Shown here piece by piece: positions 51,324 through 64,000 of a stretch of 64,000 nucleotides of DNA (position 1 is its first letter; every line of letters starts with the position of its first letter). A program made the position numbers and the translations under genes. Below the pieces are notes generated by a model. That model did not search any database. It was not told the origin of the DNA and saw only the letters and a program-made list of their open reading frames with translations. The stretch spans positions 2,016,001-2,080,000 of the forward strand of contig CAXXGO010000001.1 of the NCBI GenBank assembly GCA_963666835.2. The letters run 5' to 3'. This DNA is from Phycisphaerae bacterium. Its GTDB lineage: Bacteria; Planctomycetota; Phycisphaerae; UBA1845.

Positions 51324-51696
51324 CCGACCGGCACGTCAATCCTGAATGGGCTTCACCAGCCCTGAATCGAGGCGGAACCCGGCCAGTATAGGCGAATAGC
51401 AACCTGACGCACACAACGAACTGACCGGACCCGGTGGGAAGTCGCGTGCGCCGGGAAATGTTCGCTTGTGCCCGCGCCAGCGAGGCGATACCCTGCGAGT
51501 TATCGGACAAGGCCTGTTCCGGGTAGGAGGTGGCGCTCCCTATTCCGTACGGTCTGCTGGGTGAGCGGCGAAGGCCGACCGATCTTACTGAAGATGGTGG
51601 CCGGGTCGGATTGCCGGTCGAGTTGCGAACCAGTTGACGACGAGTGCCCCCACGTCTTGGGCGATTCCCAAACGTGGCTTGAGAGGAGGTTGTGTG

Positions 51697-53520
51697 ATGA
51701 CTGATAGGCCGAGCGACCCGCATGATGTCGAAATCCGGGATTCCGTTCCCAGCGGTCTGGCGGTGTCCTCCGACCAGCCCTATCGCATTCTCGTTGTCGC
51801 CGATCTGGCGGGCTCGGCATCCGGGTCGGTCTCCGGGCCGGTTCACGACGGCGTTGTCGGTTTGAGTGCCGATAGCTTTGACGATGTGATGGCCGCGGCA
51901 CAGCCTTCCGTGACTCTCAAGATGACCGATCCGCTCAGTTCCGCCGGGGCGATGGTCGAAGTCAGTCTTCGTTTCGATTCGCTCAAGGGGTTTAATCCGT
52001 CTGCGGTAGCCGAGCAGATCCCGTCCGTGCAGGCTTTGACCAAGGCCCGGGCGATGATTGTGGAGCGTATGCGGGGTAAGACGTCTTCGCAGGCTCTGGC
52101 GGAGGGCATTGCCGCCGTGGTGGCGGCTGATGCCGAACTGACGTGGCTGACCGAATCGCTCCATTGGTCGCCGAGCGCGCCGGCGCCGACTTCCGACGCG
52201 GCGGAGGATCTGCTGGGCCAGATCGATTTCGGAGATGGGGACGCGGAGGAATCTGCTGCTCCGCCGAAGTCTCCGATCGGGGCGGCAGTGGCTGCCGCCG
52301 CCGGTGGGGCGGGGAGCATCTCGGCCAACGAGGCGTCGGCGATGCGCCGCACGTTGGGGGAGATAGACCGGCGGGTGTCCACCTGGCTGACGGCGGTGTT
52401 GCACGCGCCCGAGGTGCAGGGGATTGAGCGATCGTGGCGGTCTCTGGCGTTTTTGGTTTCGCATGTCGACTTCCGCCGCGGGATTCGCCTGTCCGTGATG
52501 CACGCCCCGGCAACTGCGCTGCTCGAGCGGTTCACCTCGTTGCTGATTGATCCGGTTTTCGATGAAGGGGCGGATGCTCCCAATCTGATTGTAGTGGATT
52601 CTCAGTTCGGAAACTCCGCGCCGGATCTCGAGGCCCTTGACGAGTTGGCCCAACACGGTGCCAGTCTTCCGGCTCTGGTCCTGGCCGGAGTCTCAGCGCC
52701 GTTCTTCGGTGTCAAACACGTGTGGCAGATGACGACGTTGCCCGCGGTCCCGAACCTGATGGATCAGTGGCAGTTCGCCAAGTACAAGACTCTGCGCGGT
52801 CAGCCGTATGCCACGGCGTTGTCAGTAGTGTTCGGACGCGGCCTGTTGCGGTCGTTGCACGGGCGGGACAAAGTCGCGGATCTCGAGTTCGCCTTCCGGG
52901 AGGCATGCACTACCGAGCGTGATCTGGTGTGGGCGGGTGGGCCGATCGTGGCCGCCTGTGCAATTGCCGATAGTGTGGCAAGGACTGGTTGGCCGACGAC
53001 CTTCTCGGGTATGGTGCACGGGCGAGTCGAGGGTTTCAAGACCGCCGAGGGCGGGAAGAAGGGCGACAAGAAGTTCGGTCCAAGTGACACCACGTTGGCG
53101 CAGGCGAAGATCGAAGAACTGGGCATGGCGGGCATCAATGCGGCCGTGGGGGTCGCGGACCACGAAGATGTCCTGGTCTGGAACGGAATGACCGTTGCCC
53201 GGGCTCGGCGCAACGATCCGGCGGCGCTGTTCGAGGTGAGCATGCCGTATCAGCTCTTCGCCGGCCGGTTGTCGGCGTTGCTATTCGCCTTGAAGCCAAG
53301 CCTCTCGGGTAAGGGCGGCGAAGAGGTCACCGCACTGGTGACAAAACACATGCGCGACTGGGTGCCATTCGAAGAAGAGCCCAGCGCGGAACAGCTTTCC
53401 GTGCAGACCCAACCCTCGGCAGACCATCCGGAGGTCCTCGATCTGGCCGTCACCGTTGTTCCGCCCTCCTCGCTGCTGCCCGGTGGCGTGCCGGTGGTGA
53501 TGGGATACCGTCTGGGCTGA
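51697..53520 (+). CDS. Fused TssB(VipA)-TssC(VipB)-like contractile sheath protein
   Basis: TssB-like PYRILVVADLAG..SFDDVM..LRFDSLKGFNPSAVAEQIP, then TssC-like EIDRRVSTWLTAVLHAPEVQGIERSWRSLAFLV; GAGGAGG SD. Confidence 0.8.
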   Translation: MTDRPSDPHDVEIRDSVPSGLAVSSDQPYRILVVADLAGSASGSVSGPVHDGVVGLSADSFDDVMAAAQPSVTLKMTDPLSSAGAMVEVSLRFDSLKGFNPSAVAEQIPSVQALTKARAMIVERMRGKTSSQALAEGIAAVVAADAELTWLTESLHWSPSAPAPTSDAAEDLLGQIDFGDGDAEESAAPPKSPIGAAVAAAAGGAGSISANEASAMRRTLGEIDRRVSTWLTAVLHAPEVQGIERSWRSLAFLVSHVDFRRGIRLSVMHAPATALLERFTSLLIDPVFDEGADAPNLIVVDSQFGNSAPDLEALDELAQHGASLPALVLAGVSAPFFGVKHVWQMTTLPAVPNLMDQWQFAKYKTLRGQPYATALSVVFGRGLLRSLHGRDKVADLEFAFREACTTERDLVWAGGPIVAACAIADSVARTGWPTTFSGMVHGRVEGFKTAEGGKKGDKKFGPSDTTLAQAKIEELGMAGINAAVGVADHEDVLVWNGMTVARARRNDPAALFEVSMPYQLFAGRLSALLFALKPSLSGKGGEEVTALVTKHMRDWVPFEEEPSAEQLSVQTQPSADHPEVLDLAVTVVPPSSLLPGGVPVVMGYRLG

Positions 53521-53710: not shown

Positions 53711-54277
53711 ATGTCACTCACGACAGGGCTGCACAAGGGGATGGTAATCCGCCACGAGGGTCAGCTCTTCTCGGTGCTGGATTTCCGGGTAATCCAGACC
53801 GGCAAGCAGAGACCCACCGTGCACGTGAAACTCCGGTCGGCGTCTACCGGGCACACCGGGGAGCGCACTCTCGACGAGTTGGGCAAGCTCGAAGAGGTGG
53901 CTACGGAGGTCCGGCAGATGCAGTATCTATACCCGGATCGATCCGACCGGGTCTTCATGGACACGGGGACTTTCGAGCAGTACTCCCTGGGCGAGGACGT
54001 TCTCGGCGAGAGTCTGCCGTTTCTGGTCGAGCAAGAGACCTACTCGATCCTGACGATTGAGGAGCAGCCGGTATCTCTGCAGATCCCCGCGGTCGTGGTA
54101 ATGGAGGTGGTCGACACGGCCCCGCCGCAGCACGGCGGCGGAGGCAGCACCGTGCAGAAGGAGGCCACGCTCAATAGCGGGTTGGCCATCCAAGTGCCGC
54201 TGTTTATCAAAAATGGCGACAAGATCCGCGTCAAGGTCGAAAACCGCGAGTATCAGGGCAAGGAGCACGATTCTTGA
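53711..54277 (+). CDS. efp: Elongation factor P (divergent)
   Basis: RQMQYLY, FMDTGTFEQ, KEATLNSGLAIQVPLFIKNGDKIRV and EY motifs; tip loop TGKQ instead of PGKG. Confidence 0.85.
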   Translation: MSLTTGLHKGMVIRHEGQLFSVLDFRVIQTGKQRPTVHVKLRSASTGHTGERTLDELGKLEEVATEVRQMQYLYPDRSDRVFMDTGTFEQYSLGEDVLGESLPFLVEQETYSILTIEEQPVSLQIPAVVVMEVVDTAPPQHGGGGSTVQKEATLNSGLAIQVPLFIKNGDKIRVKVENREYQGKEHDS

Positions 54278-54602
54278 CCGCTGGCAAACTGTGAGCGCCC
54301 CCTCTTCAACGGTTGCGCCCCCTCTTGCGGGGAAGATTCGCTGAGCCGAGAGCGGTGGGGGAAAGGCCCGGTTCGTCGCAAAAGGGGGGCAGAGTGCCCC
54401 AGAATCGCCCCCTGCTGGCCGTTCTCATCGGATGTGAGCAGATAGACCCTGGAAGTGCTCAGAGGGCCTTATATCGATTCGCTGACGTGCATGGCACCGC
54501 AGCCGGCGGCCGATGGAAGAGGACACCGACTCACCGGCGCGGTTTCGCCATGTTCGTTCGCTGAGAACCCCGGTATCGAGCCGATTTCAGCCAACTCCGA
54601 AG

Positions 54603-54788
54603 CTACCATGAGCCCCGTTTCGACAGTTCCCCGGGTTCGAGGTCGTCTTCGTCCTCTTCACGGAGTCGCTGATTGACGTGACCGCGAACCGTCTGCAGGG
54701 TGGGCCCATCTCGCTGTTCGTACTCGCGTAAAGCGTCCTTCACGATCTGGTCGCGGTGGTCAGCCTTCTCTTGATCGCGCCCGTTCAT
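54603..54788 (-). CDS. Small hypothetical protein (61 aa)
   Basis: ATGA-coupled to the upstream ORF; charged helical composition. Confidence 0.55.
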   Translation of the reverse strand: MNGRDQEKADHRDQIVKDALREYEQRDGPTLQTVRGHVNQRLREEDEDDLEPGELSKRGSW

Positions 54789-54973
54789 TTGCTGATGATC
54801 TTGTGCCAGATCTCAGCATCCAGAACCTCTTGATCGTCCAGCTCTACCAACCCCTTACTGGCGAGTTCTCGATCTATGTACCCGGCCAACGACCCATCGG
54901 CCCGATGCTCACGTGGATCGTACGCCCTGACGCACTTTCCGATGATCTCGCGTCGTTTATCATTACCGCTCAT
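54785..54973 (-). CDS. Small hypothetical protein (62 aa)
   Basis: ATGA overlaps on both sides; weak similarity to the 61-aa neighbour. Confidence 0.6.
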   Translation of the reverse strand: MSGNDKRREIIGKCVRAYDPREHRADGSLAGYIDRELASKGLVELDDQEVLDAEIWHKIISK

Positions 54974-55230
54974 ACCGTGCCCCCAATCATCATTAGCCCT
55001 ACATCATGCATCGCCCACTGATCGCCCGGACCCAATCTCGGCAGACCAGCTAACCCGAGCACAACGTTGACAACACCTCGACCCGTGCCCTGCTCTTGCT
55101 TCGGTAAAGCGCAATACCCGCTGAACGCTGCCCGAATAAGTCGACCCCGTACAGGCAGGCCATCGCAAGCATGAACTGCCAAGCATCGAGCACAATCGCA
55201 CTGTTCGGGTTCCTTCCGATGTGCAGGCAT
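54970..55230 (-). CDS. Small Cys-rich hypothetical protein (86 aa)
   Basis: Fits the operon tiling (3-bp gap upstream, ATGA overlap downstream); CDCARC..C..C. Confidence 0.45.
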   Translation of the reverse strand: MPAHRKEPEQCDCARCLAVHACDGLPVRGRLIRAAFSGYCALPKQEQGTGRGVVNVVLGLAGLPRLGPGDQWAMHDVGLMMIGGTV

Positions 55231-55233
55231 TCT

Positions 55234-55566
55234 CTACAGCCCTCGCAATGCCCGTGCAGCCTTGTCGATGTCCGCCACGAAGTTGACATCTGCGATGAGT
55301 CGTCGCCGCACCAACAAGGCAACAAAGCTCGCTAGTGCCTGTTCTGGGTTCGGTGCATCTCTGAACACAGGGTGCCTCGATGCCTCACTGATGAAGTCCG
55401 CCGTCTCGCGTTCGTCCATCGGTCTTGCGGGCATGAATCCGATCGGGCTCGCGTCGTCTTCGATAAGCTCAAGTCGATCGACTGTTGCCGACGGTGGATT
55501 CTCAACAGGTGCGCCGGCCTTCATGACAGATCGGCGCGGGTCTACTCTCTTGCGCGTCGCTCGCAT
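55234..55566 (-). CDS. Hypothetical protein (110 aa)
   Basis: GAGGGTGAG SD before MRATRKR; 4-bp gap from the upstream gene. Confidence 0.6.
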   Translation of the reverse strand: MRATRKRVDPRRSVMKAGAPVENPPSATVDRLELIEDDASPIGFMPARPMDERETADFISEASRHPVFRDAPNPEQALASFVALLVRRRLIADVNFVADIDKAARALRGL

Positions 55567-55570
55567 ATTC

Positions 55571-55945
55571 TCACCCTCTTTTCTTCGTGGTCGACTCTGG
55601 TAACGTCGAAACAGGTTTCCAGTCCTTGGGCGGCGGTTGCTCAAATAGGATGATGTTAACTTGTTTGACGGCTACCTCCGGCCCAACGTCTTTCGGTAAT
55701 ACCGATGCCACTAACTTGGCGTACGTCGTGGGCGCTGTCTTAGCGATCTCCTTGAGTACCTTATCACCGTTGACCGTGTTCCAGGACCGTAAGATCCGTT
55801 CTCGGAGTGCTGCTACATCGAAGTCTCCATCGTCCTCCGGCTTCTTACGTTTTCGACCCTTTTGAACCTTCGCACCCTTGCCGAATTGGCCTTTAGAGTT
55901 TCGCTTTGCGGCCAGCTCATCGAATGGGACGTCACTTTTGGCCAT
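55571..55945 (-). CDS. Terminase small subunit-like / phage DNA-packaging protein
   Basis: RNSKGQFGKG...KGRK N-terminus and PTTYAKLVASVLPKDV, patterns seen in small phage packaging proteins. Confidence 0.55.
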   Translation of the reverse strand: MAKSDVPFDELAAKRNSKGQFGKGAKVQKGRKRKKPEDDGDFDVAALRERILRSWNTVNGDKVLKEIAKTAPTTYAKLVASVLPKDVGPEVAVKQVNIILFEQPPPKDWKPVSTLPESTTKKRG

Positions 55946-56762
55946 CGTCCTTGCCCTTCAAGGGTGTCGTCTCCGTGGCATCGAAAGCAGGGTAAAGCTC
56001 TCTGACGATATCGCGCCATGTCACGATGGTCGATGGCTTCGGCGTCTTCACCAGCTCCACCGCCGCGTTCCACCGCTCGACTGAATTAGTAATCTCGGGG
56101 TTCGGTGGATCACCCTTCAAGACCTTGCGTGCCATGTGCCACTCGTGATAACGCTCTTCCGCCTCGCGTTCCCTCGGCATCCGTAGTTCGATGCGCCGTT
56201 CGATCTGCGCGTCGAAAACGTCCTTAGGCACCTCGACGAAGGGGGCATCAGGATCAGTTTCGGCGATAACAGCCCCTCGACACGTCAGCGTGTGCTTGTC
56301 TAGGTCCGCTTGCGTCAGCACGTTGGCATCGAGTAGCTCCGGGTGCTCAGCTTCGAGCAGTTGTAGAGCCGCTCTCGCCTTGATCGCATCATCCCGAGCA
56401 ACACTCGCCCCGTGGCTCTCCATTTTCAACCGATACGCCTCTTGCTGTCGTTGCTCGATAATTGCATCGGTCTCCGCGTCAAAGTCGATCCGATCGCGAG
56501 CAGCTATTAAAGCCGCTTCCTGTAGTTCCGGTATCCGCGCAGCCTCGACCCGCAATTGCTCTGCACGTCGGACGATGCCGACCCACGTATCGAACTCCTG
56601 CGAAGTGACATTGCCCTTGCACGAGCATTCTGCGAACGCTGCCACGTCAGCATCAGTCATCTTCCGCCCGGCTGCCTCTTTCCTTGCCAGGTTAATCAGC
56701 TTCTTGTGAGCGCCCTTCGCTGAATCCGCCAGTCTCGTCTCTGCCTTCGCCGTCAAACTCAT
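55932..56762 (-). CDS. Helical/coiled-coil hypothetical protein (276 aa)
   Basis: GAGGAG SD before MSLTAK; A/E/R/Q-rich central region. Confidence 0.75.
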   Translation of the reverse strand: MSLTAKAETRLADSAKGAHKKLINLARKEAAGRKMTDADVAAFAECSCKGNVTSQEFDTWVGIVRRAEQLRVEAARIPELQEAALIAARDRIDFDAETDAIIEQRQQEAYRLKMESHGASVARDDAIKARAALQLLEAEHPELLDANVLTQADLDKHTLTCRGAVIAETDPDAPFVEVPKDVFDAQIERRIELRMPREREAEERYHEWHMARKVLKGDPPNPEITNSVERWNAAVELVKTPKPSTIVTWRDIVRELYPAFDATETTPLKGKDDGQK

Positions 56763-57354
56763 CGTCTGTACTCTCCTCTTCAAGTGATACGCCCCCAGCA
56801 AAGGGGACACCGTGTTTCCGTAGTAACCAGTGAACTTGGTCACCGCTCAGTTCTTCATTTTCCATTAGAGCGCCCGCAACCGCCTTGATCGCTGGCCAAT
56901 GCTCTTGAAGTACCTGTCTGGCGTTTGCCCGGGCTCGTTCGTGCTCTTTTGCTTGTCGCTCTGGATCGTCTGGCCAAGCCGCTTCGGCAACGTCATTAGC
57001 CGACCGCCAATCGCCCGATGAACGCTTCTGCTCCTCTAGCAGGAGTTGTTCTGCAACCTCGCCCGCATGAAGAAACATCAACTCGGCACCTGGCTCAACC
57101 TCGTAACCTCTGGACCAGATAGCACCCCACCGTTGTGCGTCCTTATCCTGCTTGATGTTGAGTCGCGTGACGGTCACACCACTCAGGTGTTGGCAGATCG
57201 CGTGCCCCGCTTCGTGGTGTGCTGATCTTGGCATCGCAAACGCCCAGGCAAGCTTCTGCGTCATTGCGTCCAATCGATTCGCCTCGCGCTCTTCCGGGGT
57301 GGGCTCAGAGAGAATAGTGACCTTCGTGGCTGGGATCTTGATAACGTCACTCAT
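56692..57354 (-). CDS. Stand-alone FtsH/M41-like zinc peptidase domain
   Basis: SAHHEAGHAI, AGEVAEQLL, SSGDW and HWPAIKAVAGALMENEELSG motifs; no AAA or TM domain. Confidence 0.8.
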   Translation of the reverse strand: MSDVIKIPATKVTILSEPTPEEREANRLDAMTQKLAWAFAMPRSAHHEAGHAICQHLSGVTVTRLNIKQDKDAQRWGAIWSRGYEVEPGAELMFLHAGEVAEQLLLEEQKRSSGDWRSANDVAEAAWPDDPERQAKEHERARANARQVLQEHWPAIKAVAGALMENEELSGDQVHWLLRKHGVPFAGGVSLEEESTDDEFDGEGRDETGGFSEGRSQEAD

Positions 57355-57899
57355 CCCCCCCGATGCCTCCGCACTGTTGCCACTACATCGGCACCAGTAA
57401 TCCGCTCTCGCGCAAGAAGCTGCTCAGCAAGGTCAACGATGACCGGCCAGTGTTTGCAGACCAGATCCCACGCCACATCGTAGTATGTCTCCAATTGCCG
57501 CACACTTCGATAAACGGTATCGCTCTCGGAGCAACATAAACCCCAAGCAGTATGAAAGTCCTCACAGTATTTCCGCTCACATGGCGGTTTATGTCCTACG
57601 AGTTTTCCCGCTGCCAGCTCGCCCGCAAGGTTGATCAGCACTTCGTCTCGCACCGGTACGTTGGCCGGTCGCATCCAACCACAAGAACCCGTGCACGCAG
57701 GAACGCCGTTAGACTTGGGGCTCGGTCGAATCGTCGCAAAGTCAACACCGTAACCCAGGACATTGGCAATAACCGCATGCCCCGACTCGTGAACCGCAGT
57801 CCGTGAACGCTTGTTCGTACCGAGGCTCTGTCGCCGGACAGGGCGAGACACTAGCCGTATGCGCGGGGCAGGTAAGCGTATCGCTTCACAGCTTGGCAT
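57351..57899 (-). CDS. Stand-alone FtsH/M41-like zinc peptidase domain (paralog)
   Basis: TAVHESGHAV, LAGELA and HWPVIVDLAEQLLARERITG motifs. Confidence 0.78.
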   Translation of the reverse strand: MPSCEAIRLPAPRIRLVSRPVRRQSLGTNKRSRTAVHESGHAVIANVLGYGVDFATIRPSPKSNGVPACTGSCGWMRPANVPVRDEVLINLAGELAAGKLVGHKPPCERKYCEDFHTAWGLCCSESDTVYRSVRQLETYYDVAWDLVCKHWPVIVDLAEQLLARERITGADVVATVRRHRGG

Positions 57900-58107
57900 C
57901 GGTGGTCCCATGGATGAGTCTCAGCCCGAGCGCCCCGAGCAATCGATCTAACGCCGTCAGTGCTAAGCCGCGTTGCCCTCGCAGGAACCTCGATAAGCTG
58001 GTTTCGCTGATTCCCGAACGCTCGCAAACCTCGCGCTGAGATAATCCGGACCGTTGAATACGGCGTTGAACCTGGAGCGCAATCGGTTCGCCCATTTGGC
58101 TTGGCAT
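57886..58107 (-). CDS. XRE/Cro-like HTH regulator
   Basis: GLSQREVCERSGISETSLSRFLRGQRGL...DRLLGALGL. Confidence 0.88.
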   Translation of the reverse strand: MPSQMGEPIALQVQRRIQRSGLSQREVCERSGISETSLSRFLRGQRGLALTALDRLLGALGLRLIHGTTDAKL

Positions 58108-58151
58108 TTGAACACCCCTGTTCAAAACATCACTCTACAACCCCGCGCGGC

Positions 58152-58179
58152 ATTGTACCGAATATGGCATGCCTGTCAA
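58152..58179 (-). promoter_or_regulatory. Near-consensus sigma70 promoter of the HTH-M41-M41-TerS operon
   Basis: TTGACA-N16-TACAAT on the minus strand, with a GGCATGCC palindrome in the spacer. Confidence 0.6.
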
Positions 58180-58467
58180 GCAACCTAAGGAAAAAGTGCC
58201 GAGAATTTGTCAGGACCAGATACCTAACACCGCGTATCATCGGTAGGGCACCTCCCGGAAGAACAAGATCTCGACCGCGGCGCAAAAAACGAGCCCAGTG
58301 CATCGTTCACCAGGCCCGCCCCCATCGTACGCTCGCACGACGGTAACCGAATGCCAAAGGTGCTGACCGGCAAGGAGAGCCAAACCCCACCGGCCAGCAA
58401 GACAAGCCGAACAATGGAACCCGGCTCGCCTAAGCCGCGCGCCCCCAGCGCGACAGGATCGAATCTC

Positions 58468-59385
58468 TTACGGGATCGCCGGGTAGATGAATCCAGACTT
58501 CGTAACCGCACCAGTGTGATAGTTCTCACACAGCGTCATCCCCGTACCGACAAACGGAGTCCCGTCTTCGTCAAGATCTCCGCTCAAGTTCCGTGCAATG
58601 ATGCCCGTGTTGGTCGCGCCTGCAAACTCGATGACATGCACGCTATCGTTCGCGTCGTTGTCGATCAGGTTATCCGTCACCGCGAGGTTCTGGAAAAGCT
58701 CCGTTCCCGGACTTCCGATGATCGCGCTGTCCGCAACATAATCACCTTGGATCTGATTACCTCGAACCGTGCAATGATCTTGATCCTTTACGAACCAGAT
58801 CGCGTTAGTGTTCGCTGCGTCTGGCTGGTAGATAACGCAATCCTCGATCAGCAGGCCATCACAGTCATTGTCCGCCGTACCGACGTTGATGCCGATCTTG
58901 AAGTTCTCATCGGTCGTGATCTCATTGATGAAAACCTTGCGAATGGTTACACCCTTGGCCTTGACGTCAATTGCCTTAGCGACATCCTCATGACCAGCGT
59001 CAAGCTCGACGTTCTGCAGCAACGTATCCGCACCACTGATGAGGATGTGGGCAGTGGACGCACCATCGATCAAGAAGGTAGGTCGGCGAGACCAACCACC
59101 CAAACCGATGACCCGCAGGCCCACAACATCCAACGTCAAGGACGGGTTACCCGTGAGCGTCTCAGCGTGCCCAGGCAACACATAGATTGTATCACCCGTG
59201 CTCGCCGCAGTCTCAGCGTAAACGAGAGTAGCAAACGGTAGTTCAGGGCTCTCACCGTGCGTTGTTGCGTCTTCTGCGTTGGTTGCAGTTGAACTAACCC
59301 AGAGAAACCGACCTTCGCATTGAACCGCATGATCGGCAAAAAACATCCCACCGCTACCGGATCGCGTACAGAATTTAGTGTCCAT
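58468..59385 (-). CDS. Right-handed beta-helix protein (phage fibre/decoration-like)
   Basis: GESPELPFATL..GDTIYVLPGHAETL..VIGLG..RPTF cap followed by parallel beta-helix repeats; GGAGG SD; no signal peptide. Confidence 0.75.
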   Translation of the reverse strand: MDTKFCTRSGSGGMFFADHAVQCEGRFLWVSSTATNAEDATTHGESPELPFATLVYAETAASTGDTIYVLPGHAETLTGNPSLTLDVVGLRVIGLGGWSRRPTFLIDGASTAHILISGADTLLQNVELDAGHEDVAKAIDVKAKGVTIRKVFINEITTDENFKIGINVGTADNDCDGLLIEDCVIYQPDAANTNAIWFVKDQDHCTVRGNQIQGDYVADSAIIGSPGTELFQNLAVTDNLIDNDANDSVHVIEFAGATNTGIIARNLSGDLDEDGTPFVGTGMTLCENYHTGAVTKSGFIYPAIP

Positions 59386-59752
59386 CGGCTGACACCTCCT
59401 CAAGCTCGTCCGCCGTACACTCGACAACCTGCCGCAAGACGCAACAAGCACCCAGAGCGAAACCTCGAATCCAGTCAACCAGGCCGCGGTTGCCCAGTGC
59501 CGGTTGCATCTCGGACATACAATCGCGAATGGCAATCTCGCGAGTGCGCGGGCACTCACCATCCGAGTTCTCAGCCTCTCGCCTAATGAAGTCCAGGTCC
59601 TGCAGGTTCGCCCGTGTGACCGCCCACTTGCGACCGCAGACCATGCCCGCGCGTTCACGTTGGGCCCGCTGAACCTCTGCGCTACCCTCGAACCCCGGGA
59701 ACCGCTCCCGAAGTTGTGCCAATTCGTTGTCAGTCAATAGCATCGTCGTCAC
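59375..59752 (-). CDS. Hypothetical protein, paralog of the RHH protein at 62146-62625
   Basis: Shared G..G..WA...A...DL, IRD and DWI.GFA.GA blocks. Confidence 0.7.
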   Translation of the reverse strand: MTTMLLTDNELAQLRERFPGFEGSAEVQRAQRERAGMVCGRKWAVTRANLQDLDFIRREAENSDGECPRTREIAIRDCMSEMQPALGNRGLVDWIRGFALGACCVLRQVVECTADELEEVSADGH

Positions 59753-59842
59753 CCCTAATCTTTTTCACTCGTACCCCCAAGGCCCACCGATCCCCATCGG
59801 TCGGTCAGTATTTGCCGGATCGCTACCATAATCATCGGCCGG

Positions 59843-59871
59843 AGTATACCCGAAACGCCAGGGTTCTGCAA
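59843..59871 (-). promoter_or_regulatory. Sigma70-type promoter
   Basis: TTGCAG-N17-TATACT upstream of 59752. Confidence 0.5.
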
Positions 59872-60050
59872 GACACCTATATGGCACTGAGGGGGTAACA
59901 AACACCTAAACTGTGGGTGTGGGTCGTTTGTGTCAGAGGGGGGACATCGGGGAAGGGAGAAGTAAAGGTGGTTGAAAAAGTGCCGAAGTGAAGCGATCCC
60001 CGGCAGACGGGCGCGAGACCGACCCGCCCACCGGGGTCCTCGGTTGTTGG

Positions 60051-61124
60051 CTATTGGAGGATTGGCTTACGCCATCTAAACGCAACCGTCCCAGCCGTCA
60101 GCACGAGCAGGACCATCGCGAGCATGCCCCAGGAAGAGAGCGCGGGGACCGGAAGGGGCTCCACTTTGGCGACACGGAAACCGAAATCGTAGTTCCCGAG
60201 CTCCAACCCCGCGCTGTAGGAACGTGCCACCGATTGCATGTAGTGGGATATGCTGGGCCACGCACCGCCACGAAAACCGCGATATTCAAACGGCAATGAC
60301 TCCGGAAACTTCGATTCGTTCCATTCCATGATGTTCCCGCCCTGGTCAAATGTGCCATAGGGGCTTGTGGCGATCTCGTAACAGCCGACGTCACTCCTCC
60401 GGGGCTCCCCGCACACAAGATCATAATTCGCTGCGTTGGAATCATCCGCGGAACAACAGATGTAAGCAGGCAAGCTGTCGCTGCTCGTCGGGTAGTCCCA
60501 GTAGTCACCCGTGGCACCGTTGTTCTTGTGGTACGCTGCCTTGTACCACTCGTCTTCGGAGGGGATAACCCATGTCGCGTCTCCCTCTCGCCTTTCGATT
60601 GCATACAGCTCTGCGTCAGTCAGCGCACCGTGGAGTGCGTACGAGCCGTCCTCGGTGGAGTTCTGGTCCTGCGGCACCGGTGTGCCGAGGCCCGGCTGGC
60701 CGTTGTGGAGCCAGTTGGCAAAACGGGCCGCGTCACCCCACCCGATGTAGTCCACCGGGAGGTTCTCCCGACCGGCAACCACGGTGTAGGTATATGGGGG
60801 GGATGCGGTACGTTCGATTGATGCCCGCGGCGGGGTCGCCATCCCTTCGTTATACAAGTCGTACGTGTCATCATTGACCGCTACGGCGTTGAGGAACTCG
60901 GCATACTGCCCGACAGTCACCTCGAACTTACCGATCTCGAATACGTAGTCCACAGCCCCGCAGATGCGGTCTGGGCCGGAACCGCCCGGCTGACTCTCGC
61001 CAGACCACTTCCCGGCGTTTCCCGGGTTACCCACAACCACCGTCTCGATGACTACCTCAGCATGAACGGTCGATGCACAGAGCACGATCAGTAACAACGC
61101 CAGAACAATCTTGATTCGTGCCAT
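60051..61124 (-). CDS. SUMF1/FGE-sulfatase-fold surface protein with IPTL-CTERM-like anchor
   Basis: Signal peptide; GKFEVT, AARFANWLHNGQ, PSEDEWYKAAY, DQGGNIMEW, RGGAW and GFRVA motifs; VPALSSWG + TM + basic tail. Confidence 0.9.
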   Translation of the reverse strand: MARIKIVLALLLIVLCASTVHAEVVIETVVVGNPGNAGKWSGESQPGGSGPDRICGAVDYVFEIGKFEVTVGQYAEFLNAVAVNDDTYDLYNEGMATPPRASIERTASPPYTYTVVAGRENLPVDYIGWGDAARFANWLHNGQPGLGTPVPQDQNSTEDGSYALHGALTDAELYAIERREGDATWVIPSEDEWYKAAYHKNNGATGDYWDYPTSSDSLPAYICCSADDSNAANYDLVCGEPRRSDVGCYEIATSPYGTFDQGGNIMEWNESKFPESLPFEYRGFRGGAWPSISHYMQSVARSYSAGLELGNYDFGFRVAKVEPLPVPALSSWGMLAMVLLVLTAGTVAFRWRKPILQ

Positions 61125-61145
61125 CCCTCTATCCTCCGATATCTG

Positions 61146-61694
61146 CTACCCCTGAGCTGCAACCACCCCACGCTTCGACCGCCCAAACACGACACCGCCG
61201 ACAGCCGCGAGACCCACGAGCATTACCACGATGCCGAGATCGGAGATTGCGGGGACAGAGGCGGAAGGTGTGTCCCTGCCGATCTCAGTGAGCCACGTCG
61301 TGAACGTGATTCCACCAAAAGTCACGCCATCATCGCCAGGCTCGATCGGTACCCAATCGCCAGACAGATCTCCGCTGACGTCGATCCAATACTGTGATGG
61401 TGGTGACAAATGCCCGTAGATACCAGGCCGACCGGCAATGGTCACGCGACGATGATTGGTTTCACCATGCGAGGGCATCATTTCGTCACGAACCGCGAAC
61501 GAGTCTTGTCCAGGCGACATCGCGGCCCAGCAGATCCTCGCGGGAGTATCTACCCCAGCAAAACACGAACCCAGGCCCACCAAGGTCGATTGCGATGCAG
61601 TTCCACTCAGTTCAACCACCTGCTCAGCCTTCGCCTCCTCGCAAGCAAGAAACGCGGCGACAATCACCGCAGCAACAGAACCGATACGCAACAT
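61146..61694 (-). CDS. Exported hypothetical protein with IPTL-CTERM-like anchor
   Basis: GGGAGGG SD, signal peptide ending AKA, C-terminal VPAISDLG + TM + RSKR. Confidence 0.75.
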   Translation of the reverse strand: MLRIGSVAAVIVAAFLACEEAKAEQVVELSGTASQSTLVGLGSCFAGVDTPARICWAAMSPGQDSFAVRDEMMPSHGETNHRRVTIAGRPGIYGHLSPPSQYWIDVSGDLSGDWVPIEPGDDGVTFGGITFTTWLTEIGRDTPSASVPAISDLGIVVMLVGLAAVGGVVFGRSKRGVVAAQG

Positions 61695-61913
61695 CGCAGA
61701 CCCTCCCAAACATGAGACCCGCGCAACCGGCAGGACGACGAAGCCCCTCCGAGGCCGCGCGATAGATGAGCACGTCATAATACCGGACGGAGACATCGGG
61801 TTCAAGGGTTATTCAGTACTACTGTAGCTGACTTGGGGTGTGGTTAGAAAGGCAAGCCCCAGAAGGCGGGGGAGTGATCCCGCCCACTGGGGCAAGGCAA
61901 GGTCCCGTGTGTG

Positions 61914-62120
61914 TCATCTACCGACGCATTGCATTCCGTCGGGTATCCACTTCCATTTCGTGGTTCCGCCGTCATCCCGGTTGATCGCCAGGACCTCCCC
62001 ATCACCGTTGGGGTCATCCTCAATCTGGGCAGCCCCCATCTCGATCATCGCGCAGAAGTACGGGCGAAACTTCTTCGGCGTAGTGCGTAGGAACTGGTCG
62101 GCTGGTGGTGTAGTGGCCAT
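61914..62120 (-). CDS. Small hypothetical protein (68 aa)
   Basis: AAGGA SD before MATTPP; followed by a GCCCCAG..CTGGGGC hairpin near 61856-61894. Confidence 0.6.
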   Translation of the reverse strand: MATTPPADQFLRTTPKKFRPYFCAMIEMGAAQIEDDPNGDGEVLAINRDDGGTTKWKWIPDGMQCVGR

Positions 62121-62145
62121 GGATTCCTTTCCGTCCAAGAGGACA

Positions 62146-62625
62146 TCAGTCAGATGACGCCTCGATATCCGGCATCGCCTCGTTGAGCCTGTCAACCGCG
62201 CCATGGGCGAACCCCTCGATCCAGTCATCAAAGAACATGCCCTTCTGGGCCTCCTCATAGCCATCCCACCATCGGTCCTCAATTATGTCGCGGATAGACT
62301 TCCAGTCGTAGCTTCCGCCGGCCCCATCCCCTTCGATGACCTCCTTGAAGATGACCAAGTCATCCCAATCGGCGTTATTGGTCGCCCAGTCAATGCCCTG
62401 CAGTCGCCCCTCTTGCTTAGTCTCCTCACGAGTGTCCTGACTCTGCTCCTGTAACCGCGCAACCATGGTCATCTGTCCATCTCCAGAAAGTGCCTTCTCT
62501 TTCGCACGCAACGCACGAAACAACGCCTCTTGGCAGATGCGGGACACCGTGTCGCTCAAGTGTTCCCGGTACTCCTCCAAGAGCTTCTCTAGGTCCTCAG
62601 GTATCGAAATCGCTAATCTTGGCAT
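62146..62625 (-). CDS. Ribbon-helix-helix (CopG/CcdA-like) regulator with uncharacterised C-terminal domain
   Basis: MPRLAISIPEDLEKLL...VSRICQEAL RHH pattern; GGAG SD. Confidence 0.8.
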   Translation of the reverse strand: MPRLAISIPEDLEKLLEEYREHLSDTVSRICQEALFRALRAKEKALSGDGQMTMVARLQEQSQDTREETKQEGRLQGIDWATNNADWDDLVIFKEVIEGDGAGGSYDWKSIRDIIEDRWWDGYEEAQKGMFFDDWIEGFAHGAVDRLNEAMPDIEASSD

Positions 62626-62650
62626 CTGGCAATCTCCGTTTAAGCCATCT

Positions 62651-62701
62651 ACTACACAACTCTACACCGCCAATGGCCAGTCGTCAAATGGATTGTGTAG
62701 T
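62651..62701 (-). promoter_or_regulatory. Sigma70 promoter bracketed by a 9-bp inverted repeat (candidate RHH operator)
   Basis: TTGACG-N17-TAGAGT (62687 to 62659); ACTACACAA at 62651-62659 and TTGTGTAGT at 62693-62701. Confidence 0.65.
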
Positions 62702-63659
62702 TTTTTCTCGTCGACACGCCCGATGCCCACTTCGTGAGCCGCGTTGCGCATTGGGTATCGGGGTCGGGATATTTTCGGGGATGAGGGGTGCTTGTCGAGC
62801 AAGAGCGGTTTGGTGAAAAGTTGGGGTGGACCCTTACTCCCCCATCTTCATGCTTTAAAAAGTGTAGGGACCCATCGACGCCCCCGGGGTACCTCTGACG
62901 ATCCGCCGACTCGACCCCATCAGCAAACCCTAGCGGGCAAGCACGTAACTGAGGTGCTCTTCAACCCCTTGATGAAACCCTGTTATAGCAGCCTTAAACG
63001 GGGGTACGTCCTATAACGCTGATTCTGTTGCATTCGATCGCCCTCGTGGAGCCGTGAAGGCCGTTAAATAGACTAGTGCTGACATTCGTTACACTTACCC
63101 GCAAGTTTATCGAGGGTATATGGACCCTGCGTGAGCCATCATCGGGTAAGCCGCTAGGCTGGTGTTAAGCTGGGTACTCTCATCGATCTGTGCCAGGTGC
63201 GAACAGCGTAGAGGGTACCTGAGCCCACCCCCAACCGGGATGAGCCCAGACGCCGCAGGCCCAACGAAGAGCCCAACCGGACAGCCTAGGGTAGGTTGAT
63301 TCAGCGTCCGGCACGTAGGTATCATCGACTCCGGGTAGGCTCGGTCTCTACGGTGGTGTTGAGTGCTTGTAGGCCGTAGGGCTCATAAGCGTGAGCATCG
63401 GCCGCCGGAAGGATCGCAGAGCGTCTCGATGGGCGTCTCGAACCGGAGTCGTGGGTGTTAGTGTTATGTTAGGGGGTTTGCGTGTGGCGATATGCGCCCT
63501 CCACCCCCCATCACTGCCTTGAATCACACTTCCCCCCTAATGCCCGACTCTTTCTGTAGGCTATTAGCTCCAAGTCATGTCCGTCAGTTCGCCGATCCGG
63601 CACCGAAGACAGTACCAAGGCTCTATCCCTAGGGTTTACCCTTGCTCCTCCCTCGATTA

Positions 63660-63956
63660 GTGGCGGGAGAGTGGTGGCAGTGGTAGCAGAGTGGTAGCAC
63701 CATCACGGCTGCTGCCACGCATCAAAACATATATATATATGCGCCAAGTCGCATTAGTGGTGGCAGTGGTAGCAGATTTCCCTTACTCAGCGAAGAAGAT
63801 AGAATCGATTTGGGCAAACCGATATCGGTAACGACAGGGAGTTTGCCGGATCTGCTGCCACTGCTGCCACGAATTCACGAAAACACTACTATAGTAGGAC
63901 AAAACGCGTGGTGGCAGATTCGACGCTGCTACCACTTGCCGTCACCTGCCATCACA
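63660..63956. repeat. Iteron-like GTGGYRGCA repeats in both orientations with AT palindromes (candidate replication origin)
   Basis: Forward copies at 63671, 63680, 63691, 63757, 63766 and 63908; reverse copies at 63710, 63853, 63862 and 63927; CATATATATATATG at 63728; CTACTATAGTAG at 63886. Confidence 0.8.
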
Positions 63957-64000
63957 CCTTCCGATGTCTTCCTGTGATTTCCCACGTTTTCCCAAGACTT

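Follow-up and report, generated by a model that had tools for sequence, protein, structure and literature searches.

A bounded integrative element at an efp paralog of a Phycisphaerae bacterium that may be a PICI-type phage satellite

A 64,000-nucleotide stretch of a Phycisphaerae genome, hereafter the window (C1:2016001-2080000 of the source genome, G000), was analysed and found to end within a real, bounded and apparently intact integrated element of 16.4 kb spanning positions 54204-70630. The part flagged in an original prediction as a satellite-like element is its left 60%, and a further 6.6 kb lie beyond the right edge of the window. Coordinates are relative to the window, those above 64000 continuing along the same contig (position 1 of L001 is 63001), and L, G and P numbers denote loci, relative genomes and homologous proteins, respectively. 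Judged from its genes, the element would be a phage satellite of the phage-inducible chromosomal island (PICI) type, meaning that it would excise, replicate and be packaged in the heads of a helper phage; we assign this reading a probability of roughly 0.58. The element looks chimeric: its minimal integrase-replicase core is of a kind common in the lineage, and a packaging arm and cargo of host type are attached to it. Its unusual features, the efp target and a head gene unaccompanied by a capsid gene, both rest on this one element.

Self-comparison returned a single 65-bp direct repeat that corresponds to the 3' end of an efp gene, which encodes a second paralog of elongation factor P (EF-P) (Table 1). 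The first 46 bp of the repeat are identical, and none of its three mismatches alters an amino acid in the efp reading frame. A repeat had been predicted at about 54260-54600; it does bound the element at efp, slightly to the left of that position. The native end of efp has most likely been displaced to the right copy, its replacement being supplied by the element, because five of the six ortholog ends displayed stop there (three end in GKEH like the right copy, one in GKDH and one in GKET, the sixth being two residues longer) and because host genes follow the right copy. Close orthologs of the paralog (47-68% identity) were present in 11 of 40 relatives, and a canonical-type efp at C6:58259 is 27% identical to it. 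A 12-bp repeat occurs three times in the 6-Mb genome (54295, 54315 and 70500), each time beside an att core, with a 10-bp copy at 70448. Repeats placed in this way inside both ends resemble the arm sites of tyrosine integrases, which they likely are. The GC content is 0.571 within the element as compared to 0.622 and 0.613 in the flanks, all 23 reading frames are intact, and the excised circle would measure 16,362 bp.

Use of efp as integration target is a single observation, as the closest genomic relatives of the integrase, located at four loci in 3 of 400 genomes, without exception adjoin tRNA-Pro or tRNA-Val/Met genes; the only two other homologs at E<=1e-30 are 37-39% identical. Scans of metagenome and viral contigs with the att pattern gave no second efp-targeting element. 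An empty site was not found by synteny either: none of 11 efp-paralog loci, in a search set without any genome of the same genus, shared flanking genes or had an integrase match within 1.5 kb. According to PMC11388002, Planctomycetota have additional EF-P types that were transferred; the word integrase is absent from its main text. Literature searches, for which most subscription papers and supplements were out of reach, returned nothing relevant on efp as an integration site and no paper on phage satellites in planctomycetes.

The primase and integrase expected just to the right of the window were both located there, as an 820-aa primase-helicase and a tyrosine integrase. The former carries a Walker A motif and matches PHROG primase/helicase families (E 2e-7 to 2e-6) and PRK07078 (E 2e-11). 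An AlpA-like gene had also been named as one to look for in this flank, where an excisionase-like HTH_17 gene without AlpA match was found, together with a 113-aa DNA-binding-like ORF. At least five further integrase-replicase elements were identified in the source genome, at least six in all, and the replicase was detected at E<=1e-40 in 11 of 100 family genomes. The architecture is thus a common integrase-primase island type of the lineage and not the wholly new gene set that had been proposed. The five siblings (L015-L019) lie at C3:402.5-408k, C1:473-482k, C6:1787-1794k, C5:66-72k and C1:430-437k. L016 carries a DUF5681 gene, L017 adjoins genes that, read by eye, resemble type I restriction and CRISPR-type genes, and one sibling carries DUF1580, a domain we take to be linked to planctomycetes.

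The predicted iteron cluster consists of ten copies of GTGGYAG in both orientations and is the densest spot for this motif in the genome (next best five copies; 0.07 expected per 270 bp). As the motif was picked after being seen, all similar 7-mers were used as a control, and at least nine copies were observed in 24 of about 44,600 windows. The cluster was expected next to the primase; it lies about 2.4 kb upstream of it, between the two arms of the element. It is likely the replication origin, because a comparable ten-copy cluster is found at the primase 3' end of the sibling on C5.

All 15 co-oriented minus-strand ORFs predicted after efp are present in the left arm, and most overlap or abut. 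Among them the gene resembling a small terminase subunit (TerS) is, as had been noted, not followed by genes for the large terminase (TerL), portal or capsid, and no match to TerL, portal, capsid, tail or relaxase families was obtained among the element proteins in Pfam, PHROGs and NCBIfam. An exhaustive search returned 53 homologs of the TerS-like protein, of which 49 were aligned; two of these match DUF5681 and 12 the unannotated phrog_11043. In the Atlas the protein fell nearest to viral clusters, one of which has DUF5681 on 33% of its members. The weakest homolog, P0053, matches three distinct phages and P0015 matches none. In Xfas53 (gp30) and RHph_N3_2 the matched gene lies directly before the annotated terL and overlaps it, and in ppBjS10J-1 the gene that follows encodes 460 aa, unannotated and with no Pfam match. 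A profile of the 34 closest sequences, P0053 excluded, scored 22.9, 46.9 and 16.8 bits against Xfas53, RHph_N3_2 and ppBjS10J-1, with no decoy scoring; a 12-sequence profile reached 19-21 bits only.

Two elements of G423 encode, in canonical PICI gene order, an integrase, regulators, a primase, TubC-N, an M41-like protein, a homolog of the 276-aa neighbour of the TerS-like protein and then a P27-family TerS (Pfam Terminase_4, E 3e-23 and 1e-22), after which no TerL was seen. The TerS-like gene thus occupies the slot held by P27 TerS in G423, and this synteny, together with the profile homology to genes before terL, makes TerS function likely. The predicted similarity to TerS therefore holds at the level of family profiles and phage TerS-slot genes, with no Pfam TerS match. 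The TerS-like family was detected in 9 of 400 class genomes, with up to six members per genome; 14 regions (18 of 20 matches) were read, and 12 contained an integrase, recombinase or replicase. TerL matches in five genomes bearing the family were at least 11 kb away or on other contigs, and searches of viral and metagenome contigs by peptide pattern confirmed no member. Only 2 of 278 other order genomes contain the 276-aa family, and the protein had no match in the Atlas or in viral contigs. A tRNA-Thr-bounded element in G385 (contig C2, L035:6462 to L036:2996) carries two TerS-like genes and a SRAP/ImuB-like/DNA polymerase III alpha cassette.

The predicted beta-helix protein was modelled as a right-handed beta-helix with a predicted template modelling score (pTM) of 0.82. 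Homologs were found at 55 viral and 4 genomic loci and in 1 of 250 other order genomes, the two best named records being from Planctomycetota. A capsid-family match lies within 3.5 kb upstream in 42 of the 49 loci scanned, several of which are copies of one phage; eight weak short matches and two loci with too little upstream sequence were excluded. The usual phage order is capsid, a gene of about 160 aa and beta-helix, followed in L020 by a gp6-like head-tail connector, and on a 46-kb phage contig (L089) a weak TerS-family match precedes a Terminase_6 TerL, capsid and beta-helix. The gene is a head-module gene that stands here without a capsid gene, and its product may be a head spike.

According to the proposed mechanism, integrase and excisionase would release the circle and the primase-helicase would replicate it from the iterons. 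The HTH-M41-M41-276-aa-TerS-like operon, which a predicted promoter heads and which continues into four small ORFs, would act late, the TerS-like protein marking element DNA and recruiting the TerL of the helper, and the beta-helix protein might decorate the hijacked head. In the circular form, judged by geometry only, the operon would extend through att and into the gene for the integrase. A more specific version, which we consider unlikely as a whole, is that of a satellite of planctomycete tailed phages that uses the efp paralog as a dedicated site and that, with its own TerS and its own beta-helix spike but no capsid gene, refits helper heads with a possibly polysaccharide-binding surface protein, thereby changing the cells bound.

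Several observations weigh against a PICI-type satellite. The order of the genes departs from that of PICIs, the iterons are not placed after the primase, and no AlpA/MerR/Stl regulator was matched among the element proteins. The TerS-like protein has no direct match in Pfam, PHROG, NCBIfam or any phage record; its link to TerS-slot phage genes is a two-step homology, and those genes are TerS candidates by their position. Its structural model is of low confidence (pTM 0.40), with three helices and a poorly ordered N-terminus, and fold searches with it returned nothing at E<=0.001 (best Z 4.4). Profiles for TerS-like, P27 TerS, M41, beta-helix, capsid and TerL matched none of 11 replicase-homolog neighbourhoods, and the closest sibling in the source genome, L015, likewise has no packaging arm, so that the core persists without it. 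These neighbourhoods represent 11 of 12 non-self matches (the twelfth is L034), several on short contigs; nine contain a tRNA gene and seven an integrase match. Searches of viral contigs by replicase, 276-aa protein or att pattern returned no related element. Finally, the source genome, 92% complete, gave no match to the families PF05065 (capsid), PF04860 (portal) and PF03354 (TerL), no HK97-type capsid or portal gene was detected in it, and its terminases are Mu-like.

As for helpers, a Mu-like prophage at C5:277600-306900 (L026, L027) contains genes of head, connector and tail type. Mu-like TerL, portal, protease, cement-like and capsid genes lie among host genes at C6:199865-205717 (L024:13866-19718) with no tail genes seen nearby; they may be a remnant reduced to head genes, or a cluster resembling a gene-transfer agent. 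Terminase_6 TerL copies are carried by related family genomes (12 in G385). External phages with a beta-helix gene, such as L089, are better helper candidates.

Three runs of one study contain the stretch, all as contigs that break at the 46-bp core, so that attP/attB and attL/attR are indistinguishable. Contig depth, which is not copy number, was 6-10 in X1 against 4.6 and 4.3 in the flanks (about twofold) and 9-16 in X2 against 11.9 on the left and 3.1 on the right; the X2 values are inconsistent and no conclusion was drawn. No RNA dataset is listed as containing the stretch. A low-depth variant of about 90% identity in the same sample, together with proteins P0001 and P0056, indicates a diverged sister element, which keeps the TerS-like (97%) and 276-aa (78%) genes. 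A depth-2 contig joins 54397 and 64074 (L048:1897 and 11574) on opposite strands, as a whole-left-arm inversion would, and probably derives from the sister element or a chimera.

[quoted passage not shown] It would account for the lack of a left arm in the 11 closest replicase relatives and for sibling L015, a compact integrase-primase-ERCC4 unit at tRNA-Pro. It also fits the iterons heading the left arm, where, judging from the C5 sibling, the replicase of another element would have ended, and TerS-like homologs being often single and near element ends. Against this stand the intact and closely coupled reading frames of the left arm, with a near-consensus promoter at their head, the recurrence of the M41-276-aa-TerS order in G423, and the retention of two of these genes in the sister copy. 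An immobile or decaying phage-derived island with few genes kept is quite improbable: deletion of a morphogenesis operon could leave a lone head-module and a lone TerS-like gene, but both att copies, four arm-type sites and every reading frame are preserved, no TerL, portal, capsid or tail match remains, and the arrangement of the beta-helix and TerS-like genes is not that seen in phages. Mobilisation by conjugation in trans, which an integrase and replicase without capsid genes would in general also fit, is highly improbable given that no relaxase was matched in the element and no PF02534 coupling protein in the 92%-complete genome.

The PICI-type reading was compared with known satellites. 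PICI cores comprise an integrase, an AlpA/MerR/Stl regulator, a primase-replicase, capsid morphogenesis and TerS, and elements with three cores are set aside as uncertain (PMC10085698). The element has an integrase with a specific att site and a primase-replicase module. Its regulator candidates are a Cro/C1 helix-turn-helix (HTH) gene, HTH_17 and a weak match to a DNA-binding PHROG, the putative TerS is supported by two-step homology and synteny but by no direct profile or fold match, and the capsid gene, optional in islands of the Staphylococcus aureus pathogenicity island (SaPI) type, is absent by profile matching. Divergent arms replace the order integrase-regulator-replicase-ori-terS. As two cores are clear, two less so and the gene order fails, the element is not filed as a PICI; most likely it works like a TerS-bearing one. 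Like TerS-encoding PICIs and SaPIs it combines a tyrosine integrase and a specific att site with an excisionase-like gene, a fused primase-replicase, a likely iteron origin, a TerS-like gene and accessory cargo, and lacks TerL, portal and tail. Its size is also within the range reported for them, in which the median up to the last core gene is 9.5 kb and a few elements reach 20-28 kb (PMC10085698, PMC6092414). It differs from them in its two divergent arms with a convergent integrase at the far end, its origin upstream of the replicase, a TerS-like protein that is DUF5681-related rather than profile-matched, its ERCC4, TubC-N and M41-like genes, its efp-paralog target and its capsid-free head gene; EcCICFT073, which encodes a head decoration protein, is a precedent for such a gene, albeit alongside a capsid gene (PMC6092414).

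Other satellite types fit less closely. Capsid-forming PICIs have their own capsid, portal and TerL genes, which are absent here, as is the TerL, portal, capsid, tail and lysis set that a complete prophage would hold between its att sites. Neither P4-like psu-delta-sid, alpA nor epsilon was matched among the 23 proteins. PICMIs, a precedent for insertion where a protein-coding gene (fis) ends, likewise have a minimal integrase-replicase core and no capsid remodelling gene, but PICMI115 is 6.1 kb, fis-specific and without terS, unlike this 16.4-kb element at efp with its TerS-like operon (PMC10803314). PICI-like tycheposons and virion-encapsidated integrative mobile elements (VEIMEs) share integrase, primase/helicase, excisionase, TerS without capsid genes and modular gene flow, but are marine, mostly tRNA-targeted in the case of tycheposons, and seen in particles, whereas this element was identified in a genome assembly (10.1101/2020.12.28.424599, 10.1101/2022.07.26.501625). 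The string "Planctomyc" is absent from the VEIME text (10.1101/2022.07.26.501625).

Table 1. Features of the element and its target gene.
Feature	Position	Strand	Remark
Target gene, second EF-P paralog	53711..54277	+	Last codons most likely element-supplied; ends GKEHDS instead of GKEH
Left att copy	54204..54268	+	Most likely element-borne efp 3' end; 46-bp identical core 54204..54249
Two direct copies of 12-bp arm-type repeat	54295..54326	+	Candidate integrase arm sites
Four small ORFs (61, 62, 86, 110 aa)	54603..55566	-	No family match
TerS-like protein, 124 aa	55571..55945	-	DUF5681-related
276-aa protein ("coiled coil")	55932..56762	-	In two G423 elements, homologs lie between an M41-like gene and a P27 TerS gene
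Two stand-alone M41-like HExxH zinc-peptidase-like genes (220, 186 aa)	56692..57911	-
Cro/C1-type HTH regulator	57886..58125	-
Near-consensus sigma70-type promoter, 11/12	58152..58179	-	Best among 11 sites; judged by consensus match only
Right-handed beta-helix protein, 305 aa	58468..59385	-	Phage head-module homolog
125-aa paralog of C-terminal part of RHH-like protein	59375..59752	-
Cargo: FGE-sulfatase-domain protein with IPTL-CTERM-like tail, second secreted-type protein	60051..61805	-	Host-genome paralogs for both
68-aa ORF and 159-aa RHH-like regulator	61914..62625	-
Bidirectional iteron cluster, AT-rich spacers	63674..63935		Putative replication origin
339-aa, 113-aa DNA-binding-like, 77-aa ORFs	64185..65914	+
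ERCC4 nuclease	65904..66383	+
820-aa primase-helicase	66376..68838	+
TubC-N gene and HTH_17 excisionase-like gene	68835..69499	+
Tyrosine integrase, 335 aa	69423..70430	-	Convergent
Arm-type repeats, right end	70448 and 70500		12-bp copy at 70500, 10-bp copy at 70448
Right att copy	70566..70630		Most likely displaced native efp end; host genes follow

The remaining left-arm predictions (Table 1) were in large part borne out. The HTH and both M41 domains were recovered, the latter as weak Pfam M41 matches below cut-off (E 1e-4 and 1e-5) in proteins 24% alike; the first had no solved-structure match, and at E<=1e-5 none of 100 family genomes contained it. An HExxH peptidase beside an HTH gene could cleave a repressor, as ImmA does, and by this analogy the M41-like proteins could be repressor-cleaving peptidases. 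The predicted ribbon-helix-helix (RHH) gene (62146-62625) matches RHH_5 weakly (E 0.015), and its predicted paralog aligns to residues 66-159 of the 159-aa protein and thus has no RHH part. The two proposed IPTL-CTERM proteins were confirmed in part, by a weak match in the FGE-sulfatase protein, which has many host paralogs at 40-50% identity; the second has host paralogs only and no Pfam IPTL match. The 110-aa ORF was absent from all 100 other family genomes, and no paralogy between the 61- and 62-aa ORFs was detectable. Rfam gave no match, and defence-system models nothing beyond generic HTH matches. Directly upstream of the efp paralog (51634-53520), a single ORF fuses the type VI secretion sheath domains VipA and VipB. 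The right flank (L001:7806-12000) holds a small Cys-rich precursor-like ORF, a VKOR-thioredoxin fusion, PqqD, an HPr-kinase-like gene and further genes that resemble a peptide-modification cluster.

The original prediction of a satellite or integrative element is supported in part: an integrated element with att repeat, integrase and replicase is present, and its gene content suggests packaging by a helper. The PICI-like design would then extend to this lineage, where such islands are common. An integrase with tRNA-targeting relatives here uses a translation-factor gene yet keeps that gene whole, and the synteny evidence suggests that P27 TerS and a DUF5681-related family can stand in for each other in one slot. 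If the beta-helix protein does serve hijacked heads, a satellite would thereby modify the particles of its helper in a manner that has been little described.

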